Assembly: GCA_963825865.1 (NCBI GenBank)
Contig: CAWGVG010000045.1
Location: forward strand, 1 to 32,435
Direction of reading: 5' to 3'
Source of the DNA: an uncultured Nitrososphaeraceae archaeon
Lineage (GTDB): Archaea > Thermoproteota > Nitrososphaeria > Nitrososphaerales > Nitrososphaeraceae
Length of the DNA stretch: 32,435 nt
Shown here: positions 1-28,611 of the stretch, in pieces
Position numbering within the stretch: the first letter of the stretch is position 1
Layout: the number at the start of each line of letters is the position of its first letter
Translations under genes and position numbers: made by a program
Notes under the pieces: generated by a model
The model's input: the letters and a program-made list of their open reading frames with translations, nothing else
Database searches by the model: none
What the model was told of the DNA's origin: nothing

Positions 1-330
1 CGCATTGATCTAGGAGATTCATTTGAAGACAAGCAGTGGAATGAACCTCTAATTCTCAGGTTCAATGGCAAAGAGTATAGGGTTTTCATACGAGTTAACA
101 AGGCGACACTGGAGATAAATTCTGACATTCAAGGGCCACATGACTTGAACATGAAGTCTAGTAGTAGCATCGAAATCGAGATTGCATTGCCTTTACCCCA
201 ACAAGGTCAGGATGATTATTATTATTTTAACCTAGAGGATAAGCTTCGGAATTACTACAGGATATACAAGATCGCCAAGTCTGGGATTGATTTTGCTCGT
301 TTAGATTGTGAGGTGGTGCTGGAGGAATGA
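1..330 (+). CDS. 5'-truncated ORF, probable C-terminal part of the GHKL-ATPase (B-type) module of a Topo VIII-like enzyme
   Basis: Frame 1 is open from base 1 to TGA 328-330 (RIDLGDSFEDKQWNEPLILRFNGKEYRVFIRVNK...IEIEIALP...). It overlaps the next ORF by ATGA. GHKL boxes are not visible and would lie upstream of the window, so the call rests on context. Confidence 0.45.
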   Translation, partial: RIDLGDSFEDKQWNEPLILRFNGKEYRVFIRVNKATLEINSDIQGPHDLNMKSSSSIEIEIALPLPQQGQDDYYYFNLEDKLRNYYRIYKIAKSGIDFARLDCEVVLEE

Positions 331-2287
331 ACAAGAAGAACCAGAGGCAAGATAGTGCTTATCATTACAAGAAAGGGGGATTCAAAGACCTCATTCAAAA
401 GCTTGCCAATAAATCAGATCTCATTGTATCAGACACGCTACAAACATTCAGAGAAGTCAGTTGCTTGTCCAAAAATTTCAAGCAGATGTCGATGGAAGAG
501 TTAAGCCAGAATCCAGAATTGATTGAAGCCGTCTTTATGGGTTTAAGAAATGGCATGCAACCACCATCTAAATTTCAATTGCCATACAATTGTTCAAAGG
601 CAGAACGATATCTTGAACTAATCGACCAGATTGAGGATTATTGTTCTGATCTTAAAAAAGGTGGCGGCATTAACAGGGAAAAAACAGTATGCAAAATCGT
701 TACGGGAATATATAAGGACGACCAAAGAGTATTTGGTTATGCTATTGAAGTTGTAGTAGCTCCATACAAAGACTACACGCTTGGAGATGGCGGCCATATA
801 GATTTCATCGGCTGTATCAATTCTACACCTTCTATAGATGGCGGCGAGTCGTATTTCCAAGGTGGACAGTATGAATGGTTTGACAACAAAGGTAATCTAA
901 AATCTGCAACAAGTGTTAGAGGAATTTTATCTAATTATGGCTTCGCCAGTTATTACTGGGAACAAAATAAATCAAAACGAAGAGTTCCATGCGTTTTTTA
1001 TATAAACTTGATATGTCCTGTTTTGGACTGGCTTGGTAGTGCTGGTAAAACCCATATTTACCTACATCCATTTGCAAGTGACATCGCAAAAGCTGTGTCT
1101 AGCGTGGCCTACAAAATGCCAACGTTTCGCGGCTATGATGATGGGACCAAAATTCGAGAAGATAGCAGTTATTACAAACCTTACGTATATACTGCAAAGG
1201 ATTACCTAGTAGACTTTCTAGAAGGTGAGGAAGAAAGCAGTCGAAGATAATCCGTCGCTGAAAGTTACAGATAGAATTACCCAGTCAACGGTATGGTATC
1301 GCATACGCCCTATAATGGTAGAGAATAACTTCCAGCCCCGTAAGACGTGGGGCATTACCAGGGAAACTCTTCAGAATGAGATTAACGAAACTTGTAGGGA
1401 ATTATGGCCTGATGAAGATATTCTACGCGAAGACCTCGGAATAATTGCATCTGCAAGGGCTACCATGTATTACAACGGTATATCGTATCCGGTTGGCATA
1501 GATAACATAAAAGATCTTGCAACAAATGGCGTTGTTGTTATTGTAATTGAAAAAGAGGGAATAGCGGACGTATTAACCAGTTTTGCTGACAAGTATGGAA
1601 TTGCGCTGGTTCACACGAAGGGACATTTTGTGGAATACTGCAAAGACCTTATAGAAGCAGTGGAAGAATCAGGCGGAAACGTCGCAACGCTGACAGATTA
1701 CGATGCAGTTGGAATTGAAATTGCAAAGGGCGCGAGAATACACATACCTAGAATTGGAGTAGATAGAGACACCGTAAGATATTTTCAAGAGCATTGCTTT
1801 CCAGATCTGACAGAAGAACAAGTTGAGGAAAGATATACACCTAAAATATCCACATATATACAATACCTAAAAACAAAACGCATAGAGTTGGACAGTATTG
1901 TTGCAGTAGTAGGTAATGAGGCTTTATGGAATTATATAATGTATAGGCTAAAGGAGCTATTTCCAGAAGGTGTAGACTACAACCGTGTCATATCGTCTAA
2001 TCCTGGAATCTTATCAGAAGTTTAATAGCTATATTGAAGAACATGTCCAGTCTCTGCTGACCGAAGAGCAGCAAAAGATAGAATCTGAGCTTGAAAACGT
2101 TGAAGGCTTTATCAATGTTGCAGATAAGCGCGAAGAGATTGACAAACGACTTGGAAAAATTGTAGAAAATGATTCTCATCTAAAAGAAATAGCTTCAAAG
2201 CTCGAAGAGATGGCCAAGAAGGTGGTTTATGATAATCCTCCTCCTGCTCCTACAAACTATGATACATGCAGGGAGAAGGGTGGCTAA
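327..2287 (+). CDS. Type IIB topoisomerase-like (Topo VIII-like) transducer + winged-helix + TOPRIM protein, in three frames (327-1250, 1225-2025, 1985-2287)
   Basis: Transducer-like INLICPVLDWLGSAGKT (cf. Topo VIB PYKSAGKE switch lysine). WHD-like TQSTVWYRIRP with a candidate catalytic Tyr. TOPRIM motifs VIEKEG, TKG, TDYDAVG (DxD) and RIELDSI. The short overlaps near 1225-1250 and 1985-2025 look like frameshifts. Confidence 0.7.
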
Positions 2288-3698: not shown

Positions 3699-4070
3699 AT
3701 GTACAAGGATTTTAATACACGTCTAACAAAATTGCAAGAGATTGCAAGTAAGCTCGAGAAAAGATCATCATCATCCATCTCAGATCAAAAGCATACACTG
3801 AGGAAGCTATTACAAGACTCTGATAACCTTGAGAGATTTTACAAGGATAAAGAATATAGAGAGCGCATATCTTCAGACCACTTTGAATTAGACCACCTAT
3901 ATGAGCAGGATAGAAGATTAAAGCAGAGATTGAACCTACCTGAGAACAGCACGATTAGGTTAGAGACGGTGAAGGGTTCGAATCGAAGTTATTGGCATGC
4001 CTATTTCTGGATTCCTCAATTAAAAAAGTTGAAGAAACGGTATATCGGAAAATCATTACCAATTTTATGA
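3699..4070 (+). CDS. DUF6788-like small basic protein
   Basis: C-terminal IRLETVK...YWHAYFW...KLKKRYIGK resembles the YYYAYW..KLKKKYIGK signature. The Cys knuckle is absent. Confidence 0.6.
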   Translation: MYKDFNTRLTKLQEIASKLEKRSSSSISDQKHTLRKLLQDSDNLERFYKDKEYRERISSDHFELDHLYEQDRRLKQRLNLPENSTIRLETVKGSNRSYWHAYFWIPQLKKLKKRYIGKSLPIL

Positions 4071-5126: not shown

Positions 5127-5152
5127 TCAGTTAGTTGATTTTCTCTGCCCTG

Positions 5153-5974
5153 TTATCGAATTATAAATATAACACCTACATTGGTAGTGACCTCTTGTTG
5201 TCCTGATATAATAGGAGTTGGTCTGGCTTCTGCTGCCTGCCAGTGATTGTTTTGCTAAGGGAATTGGAGTAGGAGGAAAAGGTGGTTGAATTGCAAACTC
5301 ATTAAGGTTAATTGACCTTACTCCTGCTACTTTCATACCAGCTGCAGAAGCAACAATATCAGCTTTTGCTCTTGCGCTTTCTATTGCTTGCTTTATGAGG
5401 TTATTTTTTGTCACTTCTAACTTTTTGTCAGATAACATAAAATCAATTCTGTCTACAGTATTTGCACCTGCTGCCTATAGCAGTATCAATCCATTTTGAT
5501 GTATTGTTTATGTTTGTGCTTTGTATTTGTATTGAGTTAGATACTGTAAATCCTATTATTGTTCTTGCACTAATATTTGCAGATTGTGAATAATTATAGT
5601 TTGGAGATATGCTAAATGATGACGTCCTAGTTTCATTATCTTTAACACCTGCTGTTTTTAATGCGTCAATAACTTTGTTCATTATTTTTGAATTTGCAGC
5701 TAATGCTTGCATTTGCTGTCTTGTTAGTTGTTTCAAGTCCTAAAGATACTGTCACTTTATCGGGTTTTACCATAGTAGTCGCAGTACCTGTGAGTGATAG
5801 AGTATTAGCATTAGTCGTAATATTTTGAGCTGGATTTAAGGTTTGTAGTTGTTGTTGTTGAGCAGATGCAGTAATAATACTTGAAAAAAACATACAAGCA
5901 AACAATCCAGAAAGTGAGAAACTCAACGCAATCAAAGTAAATTTTAGGAAACTGTAATTATTGTTTAAATGCAT
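5153..5974 (-). CDS. SIMPL (DUF541) domain secreted protein, frameshifted
   Basis: Signal/TM segment, then TLSLTGTATTMVKPDKVTVSLGLET, ALAANSKIMNKVIDALK, GFTVSNSIQI, IKQAIESARAKADIVASAAG and C-terminal PIISGQQEVTTNVGVIF, spread over several frames. Confidence 0.85.
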
Positions 5975-6834
5975 ATATGCAATATATATTGAGCAATATG
6001 AAATAAGTGTTATCATAAATTTGTTATATAGTACGATATGCGATATCAAAGTAGGCAACAACCTCCATATGCACTATATTCACTAACACAGGAAGTGAAC
6101 GAACTTACTTTAGACTATTACCTGTTGTCATCTAACGGACACAACATTTATGATGTTTTCAATCAACACCCTCCTTGAAGAATATTTCAAAGTTTCCTGG
6201 TGTATATCGTACTCACAGGCTAGAGCAAAAGAAGCTGATACATGTGGAGAATATAACACCATTGAAGTTACCGAAGCGAAGTATACCATATTGCGTTGCC
6301 AATGAGAATCGGAGCAGAATGAGATAGTTCTAATAAAAAATAGGAAGGGGTATTTTATGGGACTGAGCGCCCACAACCAGTTGGGGGTGACTCTACCGCT
6401 TTGGGGCCTGTAGCAGGAAGAATACTCATGAAAAACAACAATGCTAAAGAAGATAACAATATTGACCGATCATTATTATTATTAGATTCCGATTGTACAG
6501 AAGCAGTAAATACTTTGAGGATATTCCTCTACAAGTATACATAGGTTTAAGAAATTAAATATTTAAGACTCTATCACTATTAATATACTGGAATATATGG
6601 GCACAGCAATTTAAAGTAGAACAATAACATCTATCTCTTAACAATAAACTAAAGTTGTTGGTATAAATCCGATTTTTGTTTAACACTTTTTGCAGAACTC
6701 ATTTGTTTGTCTAAAGTATAGTCAAAAGAATCTTGTCCAGAGTAACAGATCTATTGATGCTAAAATCAGCTATGAGAGCATCTAAGAAGAATACTATCTA
6801 ATAACACATGCTCTCCTTATATATACAGCCAGTG

Positions 6835-7946: not shown

Positions 7947-8776
7947 CTAACGTTTTGGTCTAGTCTTTTGTTGAATGCTTGCTTTTAGTGCTTCAAGAAG
8001 GTTTTTGCTGATGTCTTCCTCATTTTCAGCTGATGCATTATGAAAAGTCTTCTTACCACTTGCTTTGGCATTTATTAGTTGTTCTAATTGCTTTGTATAC
8101 TCGTCAGAATATTCACTGATATCAAACTCTTTGCTTGTGAGGTTTTCTACCAATGTCTTTCCCAATGATAATTCTTTATTGTCAATTGGAGGTTGAGAAG
8201 AAGAAGTAGCTGCTGCTCCGGACATCTCTTCAACTTCATCTACTGGTTTTATCTCATCTATATAACGTAACTGATGCATTACAATTCCTCTTTGATATGC
8301 ACGGAGAGCAACAAGGTGTTCTCTATCTTTTAAGACAACTTTTCCTATTGCAACTTTATTGGTTTCACTAATCACTTTGGCAAATAGTGTATAAGCTTTG
8401 TCTATAACACCATTCTTCTTACTCTTTTCTGGTGCCACATAGTAGCTTTTCTCTATCAATATGGGGTCAAAATCCTTTGAGTTTATGAACTCCTTAATAT
8501 CAATACTTTGTGTAGTTTTTATTTTTATTTTTTCTAAATCCTCTTTCTCCACTACTACATAGTTGTCCTTGGATATCTGGTAACCCTTTTTTATTTCAGA
8601 CCCTGTAAATTCTTTATCCTCTACAGAACACCATTTTTTGTGTTGAATTCTATGGCCTTTGTTATCTAATTGATTAAAAGCAAAGTCCTTGCTATATCAG
8701 TAGCTGTATAGAGTCTTACTGGAATATTAACAAGCCCAAACGATATACTTCCTTTCCAAATACTTCTAGAGGTCAT
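7947..8776 (-). CDS. ku: Ku protein (prokaryotic NHEJ), one frameshift near 8695
   Basis: ATG at 8776 gives MTSRSIWKGSISFGLVNIPVRLYTAT. A shifted frame gives FNQLD...RIQHKKWC...EIKKGY, which runs into the track ORF (IDIKEF, SYYVAP, AYTLF, EYSDEY, NLLEALKAS). Confidence 0.95.
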
Positions 8777-9037: not shown

Positions 9038-11853
9038 GTGGAAATCTTAGAGCAATATAACAAAAAAAGGGACTTTACAAAGACACCGGAACCAGCAGGA
9101 AGAAATACGAAGGAACGTGGCACTAAAAAAAGCAAAGAGCTTAGATTTGTGGTACAGAAACATGATGCAACAAAGCTACATTACGATTTTAGATTAGAGA
9201 CAAAAAAGGAAGGTGTATTAAAATCCTGGGCAGTACCAAAAGGTGTTTCTCTAGATCCCAAAATAAAGAGGTTAGCAGTATTAACTGAAGATCATCCTTT
9301 AGATTATTTGCTTTTTGAAGGGATAATTCCAGAAGGAAGTTATGGGGGAGGAACTGTGATTGTTTGGGATACAGGCAGTTATACTTCAGAACAAGAAATT
9401 TCTGATCAGTTCAAAAATGGTAAAATTACCTTTACTTTGTTTGGCCAGAAATTAAAAGGAAGATTTTCGTTATTAAAAACATCAAGAGAGAATCAATGGC
9501 TTTTAATTAAAGGAAATGATGAGTTTGCATCTAAAGATGATTTAACTATCACGCGACCTGAGTCAGTTCTAACCGGAAGAACTAATCAAGACTTGGAAAA
9601 TGGTAAAGGAGGTAAAGCAAAATCAAACAAGAATAAGATCGCCATTGGAGAGTCTAAAAGCAAAGACAATGATGCTAATATTAATGATGACAACTACAAA
9701 AGACAAGATAAATCTAAAATACTTTCAACAACAGAAGTCAATCTAAAAGAAAAAGGACTCGGTGTTATTGCAGAATTTCCAACAAAAATAAAGCCAATGT
9801 TAGCCACATGTGTAGAGGAGTCCTTCAATGACAAAGACTGGGTTTTTGAAGTAAAATGGGATGGAGTACGAATCTATATTCTTTTTACACAAAGCAAAAA
9901 AAATATTTGAAATAAAATCTAGAAGTGACAAAACTATTACACACCGATATCCTGAACTAACAGAGCCGCTAAAATTAGCAATAAAATGCCAAGAGTCAAT
10001 CATACTAGACGGCGAGATTGTAGTTTTAGATAAAGACGGCATGCCAAGTTTTCAAAACCATCAGAGGAGAATGAACGTAGATTATAAAGCAGATATTGAA
10101 AAGTTGTCTTGGGAAATACCTGCAACATATTACATTTTTGACATTCTTTATTTGGATGGGAAAAACTTGCAGAATTTAGACTTTCTTCAAAGAAGGAGTA
10201 TCATTTCTAAGGTTATAAATAAAAACAACAAAGTACAAATTTCAGACTTCTTTAAAGAAAGAGGTAAAGAGATCTTTGATAGTGTCAAAACGATGAATCT
10301 TGAAGGAGTAGTGGCAAAATACAAGTCTAGTAGATACTTACAAGGCACAAGATCAAGAGAATGGCTAAAAATTAAAACTATAAAAACTCAAGATTGTGTA
10401 GTAATAGGATATACAAAGGGAGAAGGAAACAGAGAAGATTTTTTTGGTTCTCTTCTCCTGGCGGTGTATTATGGTAACAAATTAAGGTTTGTTGGCCATA
10501 GTGGAAGTGGATTTGATTTTGCTCAGCTTAACGAGGTATACAATAAACTTCAACAGATGAAGATAGAAAAATGTCCTGTTGACTATATCCCGTACACTAA
10601 TCGAGATCCTGTTTGGATTGAACCTAAACTTGTAGCAGAGGTAAAGTTCAGTGACTGGACACAGGAAAAGATTATGAGAGTGCCTATATTTCTTGGATTC
10701 AGGGAAGATAAAAAGCCAGAAGAATGTGTTTTTGAAGAAGAAAAGAGCACCGAAGAATTGGTTTCAAACGGTAATGAAAAGGAGCAACCACAGAAACTAC
10801 CTACCACCTATGAAGCTTCTGAAATATCTTCATCTAACAGTCCTAATACTACTACAATGTTACCTTCTTCTTCTTCTTTTTCTAACCTTGATAAAGTATT
10901 CTGGGATAAAAGCGAAAGCCATCCACAACTGACCAAAAAAGATTTGATTGAATACTATGACAAAATTAGCGAATATCTTATGCCTTATCTTAAAGACAGG
11001 CCCTTATCTTTGAGTAGATATCCTGACGGAATAAAAGGGAAGCATTTCTATCACAAGAATTGGGATAAAGAAAAACCAGATTTTGTACAAACTGTAAAGG
11101 TATATTCCAAATCTACAGATGATATTATTAACTACATCGTGTGCAATAACAAAGATACTCTTCTTTGGCTAGCAAACCTTGGATGTATAGAGATGCATCC
11201 ATGGTATAGTAGAGTTGATGATTTTAATTCGTGTAAAAGCGATCCGATACGATGAAGAAAAATGCGGATTGAACAAACCTGATTTTATAGTCTTTGATTT
11301 GGATCCTTATATTTACTCAGGCAGGGAGGAAAAAGGAGAAAAGGAACCAGAATACAATGTCAAAGCATTTAAAGCTCCAGTTGATGTGGCTTATGACCTA
11401 AAGGATCTTTTTGATGAATTAAAGATAAGATCCTATGTAAAGACGTCTGGAAAAACAGGATTGCATATCTTTATCCCTATTGTTTTATTATATACATATG
11501 ATCAGACAAGACGATTTGCTGAAATTATTGGAAAAATACTGAGCGCAAGATATCCTAAAAAAATAACAATGGACTGGCACACTACTAAAAGAGTTGGAAA
11601 AGTTTTCTTTGACCATAATCAAAATGCAATGGGAAAAACAGTAGCATCTATCTTTTCTGCAATGCCTACTGATTCGGCTACTATATCTATGCCTGTTAGG
11701 TGGCAAAAGTTATCGAGCATATATCCAACAGATTTTACCATCTTAAATGCTAATGATTTTGTAAAAAAATCAGGTGACTCTTGGATTGAAATATTGCAAC
11801 AGAAGCAAGACATAAACAAACTGCTTGAAGATATATCAGAAATTGGTAGCTAG
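9038..11853 (+). CDS. ligD: NHEJ DNA ligase D: phosphoesterase - ATP-dependent ligase - primase/polymerase fusion, frameshifts near 9872 and 11248
   Basis: PE: [40 protein letters not shown]: EVKWDGVR (KxDG), LDGEIV, IFDIL, EGVVAK, WLKIK plus an OB domain. POL: [40 protein letters not shown]. Confidence 0.95.
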
Positions 11854-19056: not shown

Positions 19057-19509
19057 TCAAACGCTTTCCTGAGGAAAAGGTGAAATTAGGGTATGCTTCT
19101 TGTTACTATTAGTTAATTCTTGCTCTTGTGCCCTTATACTATCGCCAGATACTAGCATCTTGAAGTTACCTGCTGAGTTTAGTTTTACCTGTTTTAGATC
19201 TGCAAAGGTGTTAACCATTTTACAATATAGTCCAGCCGATGCAAACCTATCATCTTCTAAATCTTGTAATGCTACGTGGCTAGTGTTTTCAAATCCAACT
19301 AGGGCCTCAATGATTTTTATAAATACGCCTTTGCCATTTGAGCCGGGCCCTACTAGCATGACAGCCTTTTCGTATTCAGCAGTTTTGTATAGACAATAGC
19401 CGATTATCTGCATTGCTAAAAATATGTCCTGTGGATGTAATACTTGACTGAAGAATCTAAGGATGTTAGGACACTTTGCACTAGGATCGTATTTGACAGG
19501 TAACTGCAC
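19057..19509 (-). pseudogene. P4/D5-family primase-helicase (SF3) internal fragment
   Basis: YDPSAKCP, EKAVMLVGPGSNGKG (Walker A), NTFAD, FKMLVSGDSI. It is truncated at both ends. Confidence 0.85.
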
Positions 19510-19730
19510 TAAAGATAACTGATCTGGACTATGTTCTGTGCTTGAATATAATACACTGTTGAGCCAACCATGGTTCCAGTATCTATAATTCTATTTATAA
19601 TATTACTAGTGGAGGTATTATAAGTGAATTCTAACTTGTATGCAGGTCTACCTGCAAGGCTGGAAGTAGTGTCATTATCAACAAGATCAAAATTTGACAA
19701 GGTTTTTTCTCTCTTAATAGTAATGTTCAA
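19509..19730 (-). pseudogene. PsbP-like (DUF1795) protein fragment
   Basis: TSSLAGRPAYKLEFTY...GTMVGSTVYYI pattern. Confidence 0.55.
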
Positions 19731-19817
19731 AGCGTCGCTTAGATTTTGAGATGAAATAGTGTATGTGCCTATAATAATGGGTTCTAGTCAAAAAAATAAG
19801 AAATGTTAGTATTATTA

Positions 19818-20317
19818 TTATTTATTGACTACTTCGATTGTTCCTTTCATTGTATAGGGGTGATATGCACAATGATACGTGAACTGTACCTGTCATGTTT
19901 GGATTAAAAGATAATTGTCCTGAACCATCCGGAGCTATATCATCACTTGATGGAAGTACGTCTGCTCCTGTATCTATAATTAACTCATGTTTTGTATCTG
20001 TGGGGTTTTGAATCTTGATGATGTTGTTGGCATTTGTAAAAGCCTTTAACGTAGGGTTATCTGCTCCATTACTACCGTTTATCCATCTGTAGACTCCAGA
20101 TGTTACTTCCTTTACAGATAATTGAATTGCATTAGTCATGTTTTTGCTTGGAGAAGTAACATTAGTAGTAGCATTCTCCTTTCCTTGTGCAACTGCTGAT
20201 GGTACCAATTGCATATAGTGGTATCCAAACAAATTAGATGTCATGCCAAACAGCAATGCTGTTGCTGATGGGACCTGAGGCCAGTACAACAACATATAGA
20301 CAAGCCATTTTCTTCAT
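19818..20317 (-). CDS. Secreted cupredoxin-like (blue copper) protein, frameshifted
   Basis: Signal peptide, NPTL and HEL. In the shifted 3' frame, FTYHCAYHPYTMKGTIEV supplies Cys/His/Met type-1 Cu ligands. Confidence 0.75.
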
Positions 20318-22085: not shown

Positions 22086-22970
22086 GAGCCTATCTCAAAA
22101 ATGGCAGATAAGCATATAGCTTGAGAAGTTCTTTCTACATGGATGTGCCCTTATAGACAAATCAATAAAGATCTTCCAGCAATTAGAAAAATTCCTGATG
22201 ATTTATGGGATGAGATCAAACTATTACTTCCGCCAGAAAAATCAGATAAAACTATAGGACGTCCGGTTATTCCATTTAGAAAAGTTCTTGATGGTATTGT
22301 ATACATTTTAAGAACTGGCTGTCAATGGAAGATGTTACCGTAAGAGTATGGTTCTGGTTCGACGTGTCATAGACGATTTCAGGAATGGACAGACTCTAAA
22401 GTATTTCAAAAATTATGGGTAAGACTATTGAAAGTTTATGATGATCTTAGAGGTATTAGATGGACTTGGCAATCACTTGATAGTATATCTGTGAAGGCGC
22501 CTTTAGGGGGATTTGACAGGTGCAAATCCTACAGACAGAGGTAAAAGTGGAACAAAGAAGCGTCATGTACTTACGGATCAAAAGGGTATTCCATTATCTG
22601 TTAGCATCACAGGTGCAAATACACATGACATGAAAGCTGCAATAGATACGCTGGACACTACGATAGTTCAAAGACCATTTTATAAACAGAATCTATGCCT
22701 TGATAAAGGATATGATTTTCCAGAAATAGAGAAAGAGAAATCACCAAAAGGAGATACATTCCGCATATACGTCATAGAGGGCGAAGAACGGATTTATAGA
22801 GATAAGATATTATTCCGCAAAGAGATGGGTTGTAGAAAGAACAAATTCTTGGCATAATAGATTCAGAAAGTTGCTAGTAAGATATGAAAAGAAATCAGAG
22901 AACTATCTTACATTAGTATTCTTAGCTTGCTGTATTATTGTCTACAGGAGGACAATTTTGGGATAGGCTC
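22086..22970 (+). mobile_element. IS5-family element (IS427/IS1031-like), 885 bp, disrupted transposase
   Basis: IRs gagcctatctcaaaa (22086-22100) and ttttgggataggctc (22956-22970), 14/15 match, with TTA on both flanks. Motifs IPDDLW, ILRTGCQW, SLDS, TDRGK, HD, LDKGYD, RWVVER. In-frame TAA at 22341 plus frameshifts. Confidence 0.95.
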
Positions 22971-23354
22971 TTAATTAATTCTTGTCTTTTGTTAATCAAA
23001 TTTGGGTCATACAATTACCTCTTTGATACGTATAGACACATGTCATCCTCAAAGGTTATTTAACTTTCGTTGAAGTACCAGTTTCTTATCTGCAGCCTAT
23101 TTTCTCTCAATTGACTTCCAGTCATACATACGTACATCATCATCTCATTTAGAAACAAACCCGCTAATCCTAGTTATCGAATACAATGTGGATGTGAGTT
23201 GCTAGGCCATTGGCGTTGCCAGTTATACTCTTGCAAGCACTAACTGGCGTTATCAAGTTTACATCTCCTTCGCAGTGGACAATTCTAGGATGATTGCCAT
23301 AATTGTTATCAAGAATGACTTGTCGGCCACGCTATTCCGTATTTGATTCTCTTA

Positions 23355-23834
23355 CTATACTTTCTGCTTTGGACTTGTCTTCTGCACTACTTCATTGTTA
23401 ATAAACTCCTCAAATGCAGGGTCGAACCACTTCTCTAGTTCAAGGCCACCTTCCCAATATTCCCTTATCTTACCCTGCTCAAAACAAGTCCTCATCATGC
23501 GTAGCCATCCAGTCCATTCATTATCGCCTACTACTTTTCTTTGGCGCATATGATATATGTGTGCAAAGCTATGCAGTAGATGATACGTAAATGCTATTTC
23601 TTCTGATACATCTGACTCAACATTGCTGACTATCTTTATTAGCTGTGGCTTTTCAATTGCAATCTTGGTAAGGTCGTGGATTTTTTCATCCATATCACTT
23701 AGAACCTTTGTTTCTATATCAGTTGAAAGTTTTTGCATTTGCTTTCTTGAAAAATAAAATGACACAACAAACGTGGCAACTATCCCAACTGCTTCTCCCA
23801 TAACAAAATAGTCAACTAATCCAAGTTCCGCCAT
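23355..23834 (-). CDS. Hypothetical protein with an N-terminal membrane anchor
   Basis: Intact 159 aa ORF with a TM helix (YFVMGEAVGIVATFVVSFYF) and a helical domain (EWTGWLRMM...WFDPAF). Confidence 0.75.
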   Translation of the reverse strand: MAELGLVDYFVMGEAVGIVATFVVSFYFSRKQMQKLSTDIETKVLSDMDEKIHDLTKIAIEKPQLIKIVSNVESDVSEEIAFTYHLLHSFAHIYHMRQRKVVGDNEWTGWLRMMRTCFEQGKIREYWEGGLELEKWFDPAFEEFINNEVVQKTSPKQKV

Positions 23835-24190
23835 TCTTGAGGGATAGCTAGTAAGTTTCTAATAAGCTGCATGATGAGTAAATGGTTCTTTTCCAATAAT
23901 AATAGCAGATTGGCTTTCAGCGGCATTCAGATATAGAGAGAGCATAAACATGAATATCCTGCACAGTCTATATTTAAATATGAACTTTAGAGTGTTATTC
24001 TTAATTTGGCAGGATTAACTACAAAACGACTTGACGGGAAAATTGCTGTGATCACTGGGGGAACCAGTGGTATAGGCCTTGCCACGGCAAAGCGGTTCGT
24101 CGAAGAGGGCGCCTATGTTTTTATCAACGGTAGAAGCCAAAGCGAAGTCGATAAGACAGTAAACCAGATCGGTAAAAATATGACAGGTGT

Positions 24191-25300
24191 CGGGGTTGTT
24201 GCCTAATTTGATATCGCATATGGTGTCACCTTTATTCCCAGTTTGTTTGCACATTGTAGTCTGTTAAGGACTTCTAGGTTCCAGCCTATTGATTTGATCA
24301 ATCCAAATCTTTTCTGATTGTTCTTTAATCTGAATGTGCAGTAAAGCTGATGATGTTTAGTTTCTTCAGCTCCAAATATTCCTTCTATCAATCCTCTATA
24401 ACGATATATTGATGCATTGAATATCTTTGCAGCCTTCTTTCTGTATTTGTTCTTCTTACTACTGCTATTCTTGTTCTTGGAGTTTTTTCTCTGCTTGATA
24501 TTTGGAAGCATGTTCATGTTAAACACTGACTGGAAGTTCTTGTTGCCATCATAACCTCTGTCACCATTGAATGTTGAACCTGCAAAGTCTAATCTATATT
24601 TCTTCAATCTGTTTAGCATTGTTCGGAGTACTGGAGAATCGTGTGTTTTCTTACTGGTAAGTCGTGTATTAAGTATTATGAGATGATCAAGTATCCCTGT
24701 GATATGCCATTTCAGATACTGTTTTACCCTTATCTTTTCGAATTTCTTACTACTATTTTTGATAAATCGTACTTCGTATCCGTACCTGTTTGTCTCTACA
24801 CCGGTGCTATCTGATGCGAGAATACCCTTCTTCCAGCCTGATTCTTTCAAACATAGATAAGCTGACCATATTAGTACACGTTCAAGATATATCAGCGGTA
24901 TCTTCTTGAATGTACGTGATATCCACGTATGATCTGGATATGGCTCGTTATTCCATGGCAAATTAAGAGAGGGTACTATATTCTGTATATCTCTGTACGT
25001 TGAACCGAAAACAACCATCAATATACAAATACAGACAAGTTTTTCCCAAGAATGAATTGGTTTCCTTCCTCTATTACTGTTCTTCTTTGAAGTAGGAGGA
25101 GGATTTTCTTTGACCAGAGAAACTATATTTTCGATAAGCATATCTCGTTCTAGGGTATGTGCTAGATGGTAACACAACCAGTAACCATCTTTCCTCTTGT
25201 GCTTGCAAGTCAATAAGAGGGTGCATACCCTTTCTAAGCTAAATCGAAAACCGTGAAATCATATTTACAGTCAATTAAAACGAATTAGGCAACAACCCCG
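24191..25300 (-). mobile_element. Insertion sequence of about 1.1 kb with an IS5-like DDE transposase
   Basis: Perfect 18-bp IRs cggggttgttgcctaatt (24191-24208) and aattaggcaacaaccccg (25283-25300). No flanking direct repeat. Confidence 0.9.
24203..25213 (-). CDS. DDE transposase (DDE_Tnp_1, IS5-like), intact, 336 aa
   Basis: [36 protein letters not shown]. The stop codon lies inside the IR. Confidence 0.9.
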
Positions 25301-25699
25301 GATGGAGGGTCGATCATTCTGACTGGTTCGGCTGGTGGATCCAAAGGATTGGGCACATTCAGTGTTTATAGCGCGACTAAGGCTCCTATAAGGTCATTCG
25401 CACGTTCCTGGGCGGTCGATCTGAAAACCGCAAGATCCGCGTCAACGCTATCAGCCCTGGCCCGATAGACACACTTGCGTTTCGCCAAAACCCCCACGAA
25501 CAAGTCGAGAAGAACCTCCCAAACGTTGTACCGCTCGGAAGGTTGGGCACCCCTGACGAAGTCGCGAAAGCTGTCTCATTTCTTGCATCAGATGACAGCA
25601 GTTATATCACTGGTATTGAACTATCCGTAGATGGAGGCATGACACAAGTCTAGACAGTATCTTTCTATCGAGCCTATTCTGAATAGTAAATGAAGATCG

Positions 25700-25899
25700 T
25701 CATGTTGCGTTACTGTCAGCATTAGAGAATTTCAGAAAAGGATTGTATGATCTCTTAATCTTAGATATCAAGATGCCAAAAATGAATGGCTTTGAACTAT
25801 ACAGAGAAATAAAAAAGATAGACGATAAAGTAAAGGTATGTTTTCTAACAGCTGGCGAAATGTACTATGGAGCATATGCAGATATATTTAATGAGGTAG
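25700..25899 (+). pseudogene. Response-regulator receiver domain fragment
   Basis: ALENFRKGLYDLLILDIKMPKMNGFEL...VCFLTA. It lacks the N-terminal acidic pocket and the C-terminal KP. Confidence 0.85.
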
Positions 25900-26358
25900 A
25901 TTCTTGGATGGGATCCATCAGTTATATATGCAAAGGATAAAGAGATAATTGACCCGAATGGACTAGAGATCTTAGAAAACACTGAGAAGCTTCGTAATGT
26001 AGCAGTCTGCACTCTATGCTCGTGTTATCCTAGGGAATATCTGGGAGAACCGCCATTGTGGTACATAAGTAAGGAATACAAAAATAGGATCATTAATGAA
26101 CCTAGAAAGTATTTAGCCGATTATGGATTGAAATTAAACGATGATGTTGAGATTAGGGTATATGATATCACTGCAGATATACATTATATGGTACTGCCCA
26201 TGAAACCGAAAGGTACGGAAAACCTTTCAGAAGAAGAATTATCCATGTTAGTAACTAGAGATAGCCTACTTGGTGTGGGAGATCCTCTTCCTCCAGATCG
26301 ACTACCTGATCTTAAGAAAGCTATCATGGAGAAGGGAAATCTCTTATCATATCCCTAA
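25900..26358 (+). pseudogene. Nitrile hydratase alpha / thiocyanate hydrolase gamma family subunit (Co-type motif), 5'-truncated
   Basis: In frame upstream of the track ORF: LEILENTEKLRNVAVCTLCSCYPREYLGEPPLWY (CTLCSC at 26008-26025). It continues EPRKYL, IRVYD, YMVLPMKP, EEELSMLVTRDSLLGV. An in-frame TAG lies at 25897-25899. Confidence 0.9.
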
Positions 26359-26525
26359 TCCCTTATAGCTCGATGTGTAATTTGAAAGGAAATTTCCTAT
26401 GTAGGTGAGTCTGCGGAACTTCCACATCCAAGTAGCTTTTAATTGCATATTTCTTCATTGTCTAGCCATAGGGAACTGTTCTAATTAAATAGTGCGTTCA
26501 TTTTGATAGTGCTCCTCTCTTTGTT

Positions 26526-27040
26526 TTATTGACTAGAAGAACTTCCACTCATTATTTGCCCGCGGATTTCGCCATTTTGGTTTTGTTGTGTATGGACATT
26601 GACATATGCTCCGCCATTCTTCATAAGATCTGCTAAATCTGATATTTGTTTACCGGCCAATGGACCTTTAAGGTCAGAAGATGTAATCTTTCCTTTTCCC
26701 ATTGATAATGGAGCTACAGGCTGTCCGTTTTCTCCTGCTTTACCTTGGTGGATATGAGCCATCATAAAGCCATTCAGATTTGTAGTAGTTAGGTCATAGT
26801 TTATCTCCTTCCCATCAGAGCTTAACTGGAATGTGCCATACCTGTTGCTTGAGTGTTTACAGCTGGTACTTCGTCTTTTCCCGTTAGTTTAGCCGTAAAA
26901 GCTTGCTGTGCATAAGCTGTTATAGGTTGTTGTGTTGTGATGATGGCCATGCTACTACCCAACAATGATGCAAATACCAAAGATGATACAATAGCAAGAA
27001 CTTTTAGTCTCGTCATTTTTGTTGTTGTGTCAGTCATCAA
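26526..27040 (-). CDS. Secreted CHRD domain protein, one frameshift near 26825-26835
   Basis: Signal peptide, FTAKLTGKDEVPAVNTQATG, MAHIHQGKAGENG and YVNVHTQQNQNGEIRGQI. Confidence 0.9.
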
Positions 27041-27269
27041 TATTCATGAGGTAAAACATATGTTTTATAACAGCAGCTTCGAGATTTCTGAAGGTTCCAT
27101 ACAGATTGGATTCCGCTCTGTAGAGTGCCGCTTGAACCTTTTTTCAATATACTGCAAGAGAAAGCAAAAGTGGTAATTAACAATAAAAAACTAGGACGTT
27201 AATGTAGCAGCAGAGCGGCAGTATATTAGTTACGTGTTGTTGTTGTAGTCGTTTTTCTTTTTAACTAAG

Positions 27270-28611
27270 CTGACTGTTTGCGTTTTTCCGAATAAAGCAT
27301 GTCTATCTCTTTTTACAAACTGGTTCAATGCATATGATAATATCAAGCTGTAAGAAAGTGATGTTTTTTTACTGTGTATGGTTCTGGTTGTACCCCTTCC
27401 TGAACGTCTTGGTCATATCCTGGGTAAGTTCAGAGATGTTTTATCGAAGTCTCAATTTGAGAATTTTCAGAGCGTGATGTTTGGGTTGATTGTATCCCAT
27501 TGTAAAGAACATGATGTGAAGAGTATAAGGGATGCTATATCTGAGACGAAGTGTCAGAGGAGCATTAATAGATTCTTTACTTCTCCATCATGGAGCTTGG
27601 ATAACATTATGAAACGTGCAGAAGACATAGTGTTCTCCAACTTGTGTTATGATGAGAACTTGGAATTTGTGGTTATTGATGATAGTATATGTAAGAAATA
27701 TGGTACACATTCAGAGATGGTATGCTACAATCACTCCACTACACTTGGCACTGTACTCAGCCATGACTATGTTACAGCTTTTTACTTATCTGGTGATATC
27801 TACATGCCTTCTTCTATAATTCTGCTATATGGTAACAAGAAAAGATGTGAGGAGAAAAGTATACCATTCAAGACAAAGGTTGAACTCTGCAACGAAATTA
27901 TAGATAAGCATAGATCAAGGGCGAAGAAGACTATAGTATTGATAGATTCATGGTATACAGTACATGAAGTAATATCATATTGCAGAAAGCACGGTTATGG
28001 CTGGATTGGAGATATGAAGTCTAACAGGGTAATTATATACGAGGGTAAAAAGATGCATGCATCTGATCTCATAGATATTCTCAGGGAAAGAGGAAGATTC
28101 ACTGACACAATCATAGACGGCGAGATTTACAACGCTGTAAAGTTAAAGGTGTACATACCATCACTAAAAGAAAATATCAACATTATAATCAATGTTAGAG
28201 CAGAAACAAAAGATATCCGTATACTGTGTACAGAACTTGAAAAAGAAGACACAGTTACAATTATCAGATATGCCTTGAAAAGGATGAAAATAGAAAACTT
28301 TTACAGGGATACAAAGCAGTTAGGATTTGGAGAGTATAGATTCAGAAAGAGCGAAGCGGCGCTTATACACGCGCACCTAGTCTTTCTGGCTTATATTCTC
28401 CTAGAAATTCTCAGGCACAGACTGCTTTCGTACAGGATAGCAAAGACAATGCCATCAATTGAGTTTGTCATAACATGGGTCAGAAAGAAAACAAAACAAC
28501 GGTTCGTTCGTTACATATGTGACAAATTCAAACAGGGAACGCCAATACGTTCACTGCTTCTTGCTACTGGTAAGATGGACACAGTTCATGTGTAAAAACG
28601 CAAACAGTCAG
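27270..28611 (+). mobile_element. IS701-like element, 1342 bp, apparently intact
   Basis: Perfect 18-bp IRs ctgactgtttgcgttttt (27270-27287) and aaaaacgcaaacagtcag (28594-28611). 5-bp TSD ctaag at 27265-27269 and 28612-28616. Confidence 0.95.
27378..28595 (+). CDS. IS701-family DDE transposase, 405 aa
   Basis: SINRFF..PSW, VIDDS..KKYG, IDSWY, KSNR, RMKIENFYRDTKQLG. Confidence 0.9.
   Translation: MVLVVPLPERLGHILGKFRDVLSKSQFENFQSVMFGLIVSHCKEHDVKSIRDAISETKCQRSINRFFTSPSWSLDNIMKRAEDIVFSNLCYDENLEFVVIDDSICKKYGTHSEMVCYNHSTTLGTVLSHDYVTAFYLSGDIYMPSSIILLYGNKKRCEEKSIPFKTKVELCNEIIDKHRSRAKKTIVLIDSWYTVHEVISYCRKHGYGWIGDMKSNRVIIYEGKKMHASDLIDILRERGRFTDTIIDGEIYNAVKLKVYIPSLKENINIIINVRAETKDIRILCTELEKEDTVTIIRYALKRMKIENFYRDTKQLGFGEYRFRKSEAALIHAHLVFLAYILLEILRHRLLSYRIAKTMPSIEFVITWVRKKTKQRFVRYICDKFKQGTPIRSLLLATGKMDTVHV

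Follow-up and report, generated by a model that had tools for sequence, protein, structure and literature searches.

A probably decaying pair of genes for a Topo VIII-like type IIB DNA topoisomerase in an archaeon of the Nitrososphaeraceae

Type IIB DNA topoisomerases are relatives of Spo11, the initiator of meiotic recombination, and Topo VIII is a small and barely studied branch of them. The published lists hold 82 Topo VIII members, four of them archaeal and all four from Euryarchaeota, and give no archaeal enzyme as characterised (PMC7671362; PMC8185306; here and below, statements from the literature hold for the available portions of the papers cited). Three behaviours are on record for purified Topo VIII: relaxation with decatenation that depends on ATP, relaxation that needs no ATP, and linearisation only (PMC4117785). 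We analysed a stretch of 32,435 nucleotides (nt) from an uncultured Nitrososphaeraceae archaeon (assembly GCA_963825865.1, contig CAWGVG010000045.1). This stretch, hereafter the window, is a whole contig (G000:C45:1-32435), and its base 1 is the contig's own first base. Positions 1–2287 probably hold the decaying genes of a type IIB DNA topoisomerase that is Topo VIII-like, is encoded by two genes and belongs to integrated mobile elements of Nitrososphaeraceae. The copy itself is of little functional interest; its value is that it reveals a large Topo VIII-like family in Nitrososphaeraceae-type archaea, ammonia oxidisers of soils (172 transducer clusters and 155 ATPase-subunit clusters). The ATPase part of this family is usually a gene of its own.

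A search of the full-text literature, which does not cover subscription journals, returned no report that places Topo VIII, or any enzyme related to it, in Thaumarchaeota or Nitrososphaerales. The available part of an account of integrated elements of Thaumarchaeota mentions topoisomerases of type IA only (PMC6563490), and Table 1 of PMC8185306 lists one type IIB enzyme for N. viennensis, with no mark for an extra one.

Four consecutive open reading frames (ORFs) lie on the + strand between positions 1 and 2287, in frames 1, 3, 1 and 2. A sequence-only reading of this DNA had earlier drawn attention to the overlap of the first two ORFs, a Shine-Dalgarno (SD)-like GAGGTG, a series of motifs and the changes of frame. 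Every one of these features is present, and they are placed as follows (aa, amino acids).

1–330, + strand: ORF1, frame 1, open at its 5′ end; final 109 codons of the gene for a stand-alone GHKL (Bergerat-fold) ATPase subunit
310–330, + strand: gene junction, with GAGGTG at 310–315 and ATGA at 327–330, where the ORF1 stop and the ORF2 start overlap
327–1250, + strand: ORF2, frame 3, 307 aa; H2TH domain, transducer domain and start of the long linker helix
ORF2 residues about 5–92, + strand: H2TH domain (AF2 model, VIA)
ORF2 residues about 93–270, + strand: transducer domain, with the switch Lys241 (AF2 model, VIA)
1047–1049, + strand: Lys codon of the motif GSAGKT in ORF2 (sequence)
ORF2 residues 290–305, + strand: start of the long linker helix (AF2 model)
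1221–1228, + strand: frame break 1, located in the linker helix that joins transducer and 5Y-CAP; frame 3 gives way to frame 1
1225–2025, + strand: ORF3, frame 1; 5Y-CAP and Toprim domains
1297–1299, + strand: Tyr codon of the motif TQSTVWYRIRP in ORF3 (sequence)
1549–1551, + strand: Glu codon of the motif IEKEG in ORF3 (sequence)
Within ORF3, + strand: motif HTKG (sequence)
1696–1698 and 1702–1704, + strand: Asp codons of the motif LTDYDAVG in ORF3 (sequence)
1885–1887, + strand: Glu codon of the motif RIELDS in ORF3 (sequence)
1996–2021, + strand: frame break 2, past the Toprim/T2BI region and ahead of the C-terminal tail; frame 1 gives way to frame 2
1985–2287, + strand: ORF4, frame 2, 100 aa; C-terminal coiled-coil extension

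Kinship with Topo VIII

Against the sequences of the PDB, profile A1 had a sole match, to the Toprim domain of Topo VI-A (E 0.013), so that predicted folds were needed to assign the domains. The AF2 model of ORF2 (mean pLDDT 90.7; 85-row alignment A2) had the Topo VI-B structures 1mx0, 1z59 and 2zbk_B as its top Foldseek matches in the PDB (E 1e-5 to 6.5e-5). With VIA-align, model residues 5–270 corresponded to residues 227–461 of S. shibatae Topo VI-B (1z5a_B; Z 11.1, root-mean-square deviation (rmsd) 6.5, 217 residues aligned), whereas the GyrB and ParE transducers aligned only to residues 93/96–270 (Z about 8.5). Given this difference in extent, we assign to ORF2 an H2TH domain followed by a transducer, the switch lysine of which, K241, is near-invariant across the 85 rows.

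The AF2 model of ORF3 (mean pLDDT 93.6; 66-row alignment A3) matched Topo VI-A best (1d3y; Foldseek E 8.5e-7), and its residues 1–247 corresponded to residues 84–366 of 1d3y_B (Z 15.2, rmsd 3.8, 218 residues aligned). The first residue of the model falls on residue 84 of 1d3y, 86 of 9o0g_A and 87 of both 2zbk_A and 2q2e_A. After Topo VI-A came Spo11, MksG and JetD, the last two limited to the Toprim domain. Residues E109, K110, D158, D160 and G163 are invariant in the 66 rows, and Y25 and E221 are nearly so. The transducer, winged-helix (5Y-CAP) and Toprim folds that the sequence-only reading had named were thus recovered by structure comparison. A chance resemblance can be dismissed, since relatives are numerous and both models have a mean pLDDT above 90: a HMMER search of 1.84 billion representatives returned 172 relatives of ORF2 at E<=1e-3, and ORF3 has 88 in its own length class.

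Curated libraries gave distant matches. ORF3 scored 30.2 bits (E 2.2e-7) against NCBIfam NF003335, the cut-off of which is 424, and 19.1 bits against Pfam TOP6A-Spo11_Toprim, the threshold being 24.1; its Pfam Toprim matches were all below threshold, and it matched PHROG 6247, 'DNA topoisomerase', at E 2.8e-4. For ORF2 and the GHKL subunits, no family in Pfam, PHROGs, NCBIfam or PADLOC was found beyond HATPase_c at E 0.03.

A rival reading is that of a JetD/MksG-like nuclease, derived from a topoisomerase and serving in defence; the sequence-only reading had offered a nuclease or defence module of such origin as one possibility. The Toprim of the ORF3 model indeed matches MksG (8b7f, Z 12.9) and JetD (7til, Z 11.3), there is a Pfam match to DUF2399 (E 2.8e-4), the GHKL subunit departs from the usual ATP-site motifs (see below), and one published Topo VIII merely linearised plasmids (PMC4117785). 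However, JetD and MksG cover only model residues 73/75–244, whereas Topo VI-A covers 1–247. These proteins of Wadjet-type systems have a Toprim of Topo VI-A type in common with the family and nothing else, while the family has GHKL, H2TH and transducer domains; this B module, switch lysine included, is that of a type II topoisomerase. PADLOC found nothing for ORF2 or ORF3, and for ORF4 it gave three weak matches of the coiled-coil type, to PDC-M09A, PbeC and ZorA (E 0.0025–0.0046), none of them Wadjet. Its JetD profile matched homologues on the Toprim only (E 0.002–0.004), and no SMC-like JetABC genes stand beside the loci examined. We regard a nuclease of this kind as highly improbable, and return to the type IIB topoisomerase.

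Within the type IIB enzymes, comparisons point to Topo VIII. A fused relative from locus L035 (883 aa used) had a sole match among 72,556 plasmids (tblastn), plasmid 5 of H. jeotgali B3 (E 2e-5); the 906-aa gene of this plasmid is the archaeal Topo VIII of the literature (PMC4117785, PMC7671362). In pairwise profile comparisons with single proteins (hhalign), on which the placement near Topo VIII is based, A1 matched the H. jeotgali enzyme with 98.5% probability (E 1.6e-15, 381 columns) and the Topo VIII of P. polymyxa pPPM1a with 96.9% (E 1.7e-10, 297 columns). By contrast, the match to the host's own Top6A reached 36% (E 3.7e-4) over 93 columns of the Toprim only, and that to the host's Top6B (0.3%, E 0.22, 25 columns) is not meaningful.

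The residues after the catalytic Tyr are consistent with this. A mark of Topo VIII that neither Topo VI nor Mini-A has is an Arg at the third position past the Tyr, in many cases with a Pro next to it (PMC7671362). The window has YRIRP, which aligns with YKFRP of H. jeotgali, YAIRP of P. polymyxa and YAVRP of P. amygdali, the host Top6A having YATL; Y25 falls on the Tyr of the three Topo VIII references. The Arg at Tyr+3 is found in 36 of the 45 rows (of the 66 in alignment A3) in which the motif could be located. The published contexts ahead of the Tyr, RxxY/FY, RxxMY and HxxY/FY, are not seen: the window has SxxWY, and an Arg stands at the place in question in 4 of the 45 rows. The sequence-only reading had described a divergence from R..YY to Q..VWY. 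The Arg is indeed replaced and a Trp does precede the Tyr, but the replacing residue is Ser, with the Gln lying one position further upstream.

The T2BI box of the window is RIELDSI, a form found in 27 of the 66 rows, the others having variants of R/K-[IV]-E-[LIM]-[DN]-[SAN]-x. The references carry RVEINAF, RVELNSM and RVELNAM; Arg, Glu and Leu are common with the window, and the Asp recalls the box of Mini-A.

The known Topo VIII enzymes (H. jeotgali B3 plasmid 5, P. polymyxa pPPM1a) thus resemble the family in several respects. B-like and A-like modules are fused or adjacent, some relatives being a single polypeptide and others a pair of adjacent genes split within B. The two have in common the switch lysine (in the window, K241 of GSAGKT, in a domain predicted to superpose on the Topo VI-B and GyrB transducers), the Toprim Glu with DxDxxG, and the Arg-Pro at Tyr+3/+4. 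The T2BI boxes of the two come close to each other in the type R-[VI]-E-L-[ND]-[AS]-x, and the family, like Topo VIII, is probably carried on integrated elements. In both, the chain runs on past the Toprim into a C-terminal extension; the family's tail of about 100 aa can be aligned with those of the Topo VIII references, whereas Top6A ends at that point. They differ in that Topo VIII has Arg or His four residues before the Tyr where the family has Ser, with Trp before the Tyr in the family, and RVELNAM instead of RIELDSI. They differ also by host, the family occurring in Nitrososphaeraceae-like archaea and the published archaeal members in Euryarchaeota only (PMC7671362, Table 1).

Topo VI has the same H2TH, transducer, 5Y-CAP and Toprim folds, and both enzymes have two kinds of subunit. 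However, the B subunit of Topo VI comprises GHKL, H2TH and transducer domains, so that the subunit boundary differs; the family lacks the N-terminal part of the A subunit, and its NCBIfam scores fall far short of the equivalog cut-offs. The host also keeps its own intact Topo VI pair in addition to the family copy. Since the canonical Top6A and Top6B genes, on contig C14, are intact, we take the copy in the window to be accessory to the host.

Mini-A (Takahashi et al. 2019), which we compared by its published motifs only, resembles the family in its ELD-containing T2BI box and through the match to PHROG 6247. However, Mini-A is viral and has no B partner, whereas the family has a B module, adjacent or fused; its T2BI box is xWELDAL rather than RIELDSI, and the Arg-Pro at Tyr+3 is absent from it (PMC7671362). 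ORF3 had no match in 50,697 phage records (tblastn), and the A part of the H. jeotgali Topo VIII likewise had none. A Foldseek search of BFVD gave no match at E<=0.001, primase Toprims being all that it listed.

We conclude, on comparison of sequences, that the locus family is a Topo VIII-like variant, kin to Topo VIII far more than to the host's Topo VI. The earlier suggestion of a Topo VIII-like type IIB enzyme is borne out by the two profile matches, the Tyr-x-x-Arg-Pro motif and the folds.

The gene boundary inside the B module

ORF1 is open from base 1 to a TGA at 328–330. Positions 16–297 were matched by five stand-alone GHKL subunits with 36–41% identity (tblastn), and ORF1 corresponds to residues from about 166/199 to 254/288 of such subunits (E 1e-7 to 1e-12). 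The same assignment followed when ORF1 was aligned to GHKL subunits and to the N-terminal regions of fused relatives. The upstream ORF therefore carries the end of a GHKL subunit, as the sequence-only reading had supposed. The N, G1 and G2 boxes belong to the 5′ part of the gene, which lies beyond the start of the contig, and the missing N-terminal part of this gene is absent from every other contig of the assembly. ORF2 has no upstream extension, because its frame contains a stop (TGA, 309–311) and no start codon before the ATG at 327, which is the sole start codon downstream of that stop; GAGGTG and this ATG are 11 nt apart.

In intact relatives, the counterparts of ORF2, ORF3 and ORF4 form one gene of 617–683 aa (the range of ten full-length matches in our survey of the family's genomes), directly after a separate GHKL gene of about 260–345 aa. 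We found such intact pairs at loci L031, L032, L045, L046 and L047, where the frame of the second gene measures, from stop to stop, 642, 649, 663, 656 and 673 aa, respectively, and comes after a GHKL gene of about 270–300 aa. The two genes overlap by 1 nt in L045, abut with no gap in L046, and are separated by 2 nt in L047 and by 5 nt in L031. Intact relatives carry the counterpart of ORF4 on the same chain as the Toprim domain; it is continuous with the A part in L031, L032, L020 and a paralogue on contig C6 of the host, with the tail of which ORF4 has 69% identity over 74 residues.

We re-scored 89 rows of ORF2 relatives and classed 87, two being dropped for a match span of <180 residues. 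Of these rows 32 start at the H2TH domain, 27 have >=150 GHKL residues ahead of it, 13 are intermediate and 15 are N-terminally cut. In a tree of 72 rows, from which the 15 cut rows were left out, ORF2 falls inside a 26-row clade with SH-aLRT 99, made up of 25 rows that start at H2TH and one short fragment. The sister group of this split clade consists of fused forms. Stand-alone GHKL subunits amount to 155 clusters and lie on contigs of up to 657,925 bases, and fused relatives have open frames of 799–1018 aa. Nearly all relatives are annotated as hypothetical; stray names among those of ORF3 are DUF2399 and one 'DNA topoisomerase VI subunit A', and none of the 155 GHKL clusters carries a precomputed Pfam domain.

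Given the intact pairs, the well-supported split clade and the 155 stand-alone GHKL clusters, we conclude from these alignments and gene maps that the boundary at 327–330 is an old, conserved and genuine gene boundary inside the B module. The break inside B was therefore read correctly from the sequence, and the alternative of a single ordinary ORF is not borne out. It had been described as lying between the ATPase and a transducer-A fusion; it does lie in the B module, but since ORF2 opens with an H2TH domain, the true boundary is GHKL | H2TH-transducer-A. It had also been called unusual. Its position does differ from those in print, although split Topo VIII has precedent: seven cases at two positions are described, five of them just before the long helix (PMC7671362, section 15). 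The published splits are H2TH|transducer or transducer|long helix, and that of the family is GHKL|H2TH, with the reservation that the authors' domain limits may differ from ours. With fused forms, forms split at GHKL|H2TH and forms split before the linker helix, the family is a natural experiment on how ATPase and cleavage modules communicate.

Directly 5′ of the GHKL or fused gene, an ORF of about 340–380 aa is conserved in two genomes (L032, 5990–7006, − strand; L034, 2707–3840, + strand), an observation that rests in part on the unpublished genome G034, the source of L034; this ORF had no Pfam or PHROG match.

Frame breaks and the state of the window copy

Frame 1 is closed by a TAG at 1219–1221, just ahead of ORF3. 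At break 1, the residues of the relatives P0006, P0003 and P0153 are contiguous across the shift, with none lost (tblastn). P0153, the closest relative (91% identity over 181 residues in tblastn; 92% over 67% of ORF3), reads FLKQRKKAVEQNPSL in one frame across break 1 and is itself cut elsewhere. At break 2, the residues of P0006 up to 543 lie in frame 1 as far as nt 1995, and residues 558–620 lie in frame 2 from nt 2021 (tblastn). Relatives matched in the family genome survey have no gene boundary at this position. Neither break falls in a long homopolymer.

Read evidence came from contigs of 11 public runs, each with a share of 0.16 or less; no RNA run was among those listed. A 230-base short-read contig of run X1 reproduces the region of break 2 (1853–2082) with 0 differences and 0 gaps. 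Near break 1, record 9 of run X7 ends at 1224 and has 14 differences. Because the 5′ end is cut at the contig edge and the second gene is broken by two frame changes, we consider the window copy a probable pseudogene, most likely decaying or dead, which would have lost its function. The sequence-only reading had proposed to repair the frames at about 1225 and 2000 from reads; that they are mere slips of assembly is at odds with the exact public-run contig at break 2 and with P0153, which reads through break 1.

Several observations weigh against a dead gene. The catalytic residues of ORF2 and ORF3 are all intact. Run X1 may come from the sample behind the assembly, so that its contig is perhaps no independent witness to break 2, and the region of break 1 (1225–1280) is without a high-identity contig from the public runs, so that an assembly error is possible there. 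Some relatives have two tidy ORFs that meet at the linker of break 1 (G474:C29, 282|413 aa; G471:C2, 402|368 aa), and further clean splits at the linker occur in G493:C279, G521:C317, G468:C215 and the host's own contig C6 (345|384 aa, with ATGA). A GTG at 1225, at the start position of relative P0158, could start ORF3. Break 1 alone need not kill the gene, and might be tolerated.

These observations bear on two other readings of the locus. If both frame changes were errors of assembly or sequencing, the real locus would be an intact, working two-gene Topo VIII-like unit. The absence of internal stops from ORF2, ORF3 and ORF4 would fit this, as would the retained catalytic residues and the gap in public-run coverage at break 1, and a single extra base would explain each break. 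However, the X1 contig is exact across break 2, and no long homopolymer is present at either break. In this assembly the canonical Top6A and Top6B genes read through without interruption for 384 and 668 codons, respectively, so that frame errors are not rife in it. The window contains other cut genes (a SIMPL gene in three pieces and a LigD Prim-Pol domain in two; see below), and most other copies of the family, in this genome and in relatives, contain stops; the host genome has about a dozen further family fragments, several with stops. We judge it improbable that both breaks are errors. Contig C45 has 39% of its length in open frames of >=150 codons, against 48% genome-wide.

Alternatively, the copy might work in pieces, with GHKL, H2TH-transducer and 5Y-CAP-Toprim as separate proteins, ORF3 starting at GTG 1225 and the tail being dispensable or made as ORF4. 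The six clean splits at the same linker, the start of P0158 exactly at the GTG position and the five published Topo VIII split just before the long helix (PMC7671362) are what such an arrangement would lead one to expect. However, at least 20 of the 26 rows of ORF2's own clade are in frame through the junction (16 with tails of >100 residues and 4 more that we inspected), P0153 among the relatives reads through it at 91–92% identity, and break 2 has no counterpart boundary in relatives. In addition, ORF2 and ORF3 overlap by 26 nt, unlike the tidy ATGA of real boundaries. A working multi-piece enzyme seems to us a poor prospect, and we retain the reading of a decaying two-gene copy.

In P0009, P0017 and P0024, which belong to different branches of the clade, out-of-frame ends lie a few residues from break 1, in a Lys/Arg-rich linker (FLxxRxKAVE); this could reflect a mutational hot spot or recurrent splitting of the linker. 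With these ends in mind we considered a programmed frameshift at break 1. We did not adopt it as the main reading: the window needs a +1 shift and the second ORF on C6 lies in −1, there is no slippery site, and the nearest relative is in frame.

Two paralogues lie on contig C6 of the host. In the first (G000:C6:50345-52443, − strand), an H2TH-transducer ORF of 345 codons and an A-type ORF of 384 codons overlap by ATGA, and no GHKL gene was found upstream; it is possibly a three-piece form or a remnant. The second (G000:C6:70311-74186) is of the fused type, with a GHKL N box (LKEMMDNALDH) and a frame break after the ATPase part. Its Toprim is shortened by an inserted element with transposase-like ORFs at 72489–74186.

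ATP site, distribution and neighbouring genes

By homology with Topo VI and Topo VIII, an intact unit would contain two copies of each subunit in an A2B2-like clamp, the GHKL subunit docking on the H2TH-transducer part of the second subunit. Nucleotide binding would make the GHKL domains dimerise, with the switch lysine of the transducer sensing the nucleotide state. Tyr25 and the metal site of the Toprim would cut the gate duplex, and dimerisation of the GHKL domains would drive the passage of a second duplex. Such an activity would serve the replication or segregation of the element.

ATP-driven strand passage may not hold, given the ATP site of the clade. In Topo VIII, the N, G1 (DxGxG) and G2 (GxxGxG/A) boxes are kept in 93% of members (PMC7671362). 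In contrast, of 23 GHKL subunits of the split clade, 22 keep the N box and all 23 have RNSN for G1, and their G2 reads GxLGD and then Phe in 13, Tyr in 9 and Gly in one; the boxes of the window's own subunit would lie beyond the contig start. RNSN sits where the host Top6B and the H. jeotgali Topo VIII carry the G1 box (D-N/D-G-x-G). The N-box Glu and Asn and many other pocket residues stay invariant, so the nucleotide pocket of the family is altered yet strictly conserved. In the fused relatives of L033 and L035, GxxGxA is present, and the Asp and Gly residues of G1 are absent. The GHKL subunit of L032 (5092–5898, − strand) is unique among the 23 in having Gln for the N-box Glu (IQLIGNAWD), in a pair that is otherwise intact.

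A more far-reaching proposal, which we put forward tentatively and consider rather unlikely, is that the clade is more than a Topo VIII variant and stands as a type IIB subfamily in its own right, one of ammonia-oxidising archaea from soil. Its detached GHKL subunit, with RNSN for the adenine-binding DxGxG and a bulky residue closing the G2 box, would no longer bind ATP canonically. The subunit would instead be a clamp with a regulatory task, or respond to a different ligand, in the service of a Tyr/Toprim enzyme of integrated elements that cleaves DNA or relaxes it independently of ATP. Top6BL, a degenerate partner of Spo11, offers a parallel for such an altered GHKL subunit.

The family is concentrated in the host's own group. 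Within the family-level group, 10 of 36 genomes besides the host's matched ORF3; in the order's other families, 0 of 24 did. Profile A1 had matches in 45 of a further 200 genomes of the family, spread over 9 of 17 genera sampled besides the host's own (10 of 18 once the host genome is counted), at up to seven per genome and many with stops. This is a patchy distribution, often with several decayed copies close to integrases. These tallies include the unpublished genomes G034 (in the 36- and 200-genome sets) and G580 (in the 200-genome set); apart from the ORF conserved 5′ of the GHKL or fused gene, nothing else here draws on them. Relatives in databases are labelled Nitrososphaeraceae and Ca. 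Nitrosopolaris. Across the phylum, one of 400 genomes, G287, had a match, to a divergent A-only protein of 381 aa (L042, 1477–2622, − strand) that keeps DFDAAG, has CRKEG for IEKEG and lacks the WY motif; this protein is probably a relative that has lost its activity or diverged strongly.

Genes for tyrosine recombinases are found no more than a few kb from the unit at two loci, L032 (PHROG integrase, E 4e-10) and L047 (identified with Pfam, E 6e-6), integrase fragments lie near L045, and the copy at L020 is cut by an integrase gene. In the window, no integrase, tRNA or element border was found; the surroundings of the copy include three transposase ORFs and other cut genes. The sequence-only reading had proposed a distinct mobile-element-borne group, and the integrases near relatives, together with the SH-aLRT of 99 for the split clade, agree with it. 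The family would also serve as a marker for integrated elements, and for their decay, in these genomes.

Other genes of the window are also in pieces. A SIMPL/DUF541 gene (5127–6061, − strand) consists of three consecutive ORF pieces, covering profile positions 123–171, 30–106 and 1–31. A Ku-like ORF (7947–8552, − strand) adjoins a LigD-type end-joining module (9038–11853, + strand) of three ORFs, for phosphoesterase, ATP ligase and Prim-Pol, in which the Prim-Pol domain is cut between 9861–11255 and 11215–11853. The region 22513–28595 is rich in insertion sequences and degraded, with DDE-transposase ORFs at 22513–22857, 24203–25213 (− strand) and 27378–28595, and it contains a fragment of nitrile hydratase alpha at 26056–26358.

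A 123-aa ORF at 3699–4070 (+ strand) is one member of a multi-copy family, for which ten further contigs of the host genome hold matches; one copy, at C6:44013-44387, is about 6 kb from the Topo VIII-like copy on C6. Finally, the region 19057–20295 (− strand) holds a DUF5906 fragment (19057–19509) and an adjacent 157-aa ORF (19822–20295), copies of which are found on C41, C3 and C48 with 57–80% identity; together they are possibly the remains of a replicative element.

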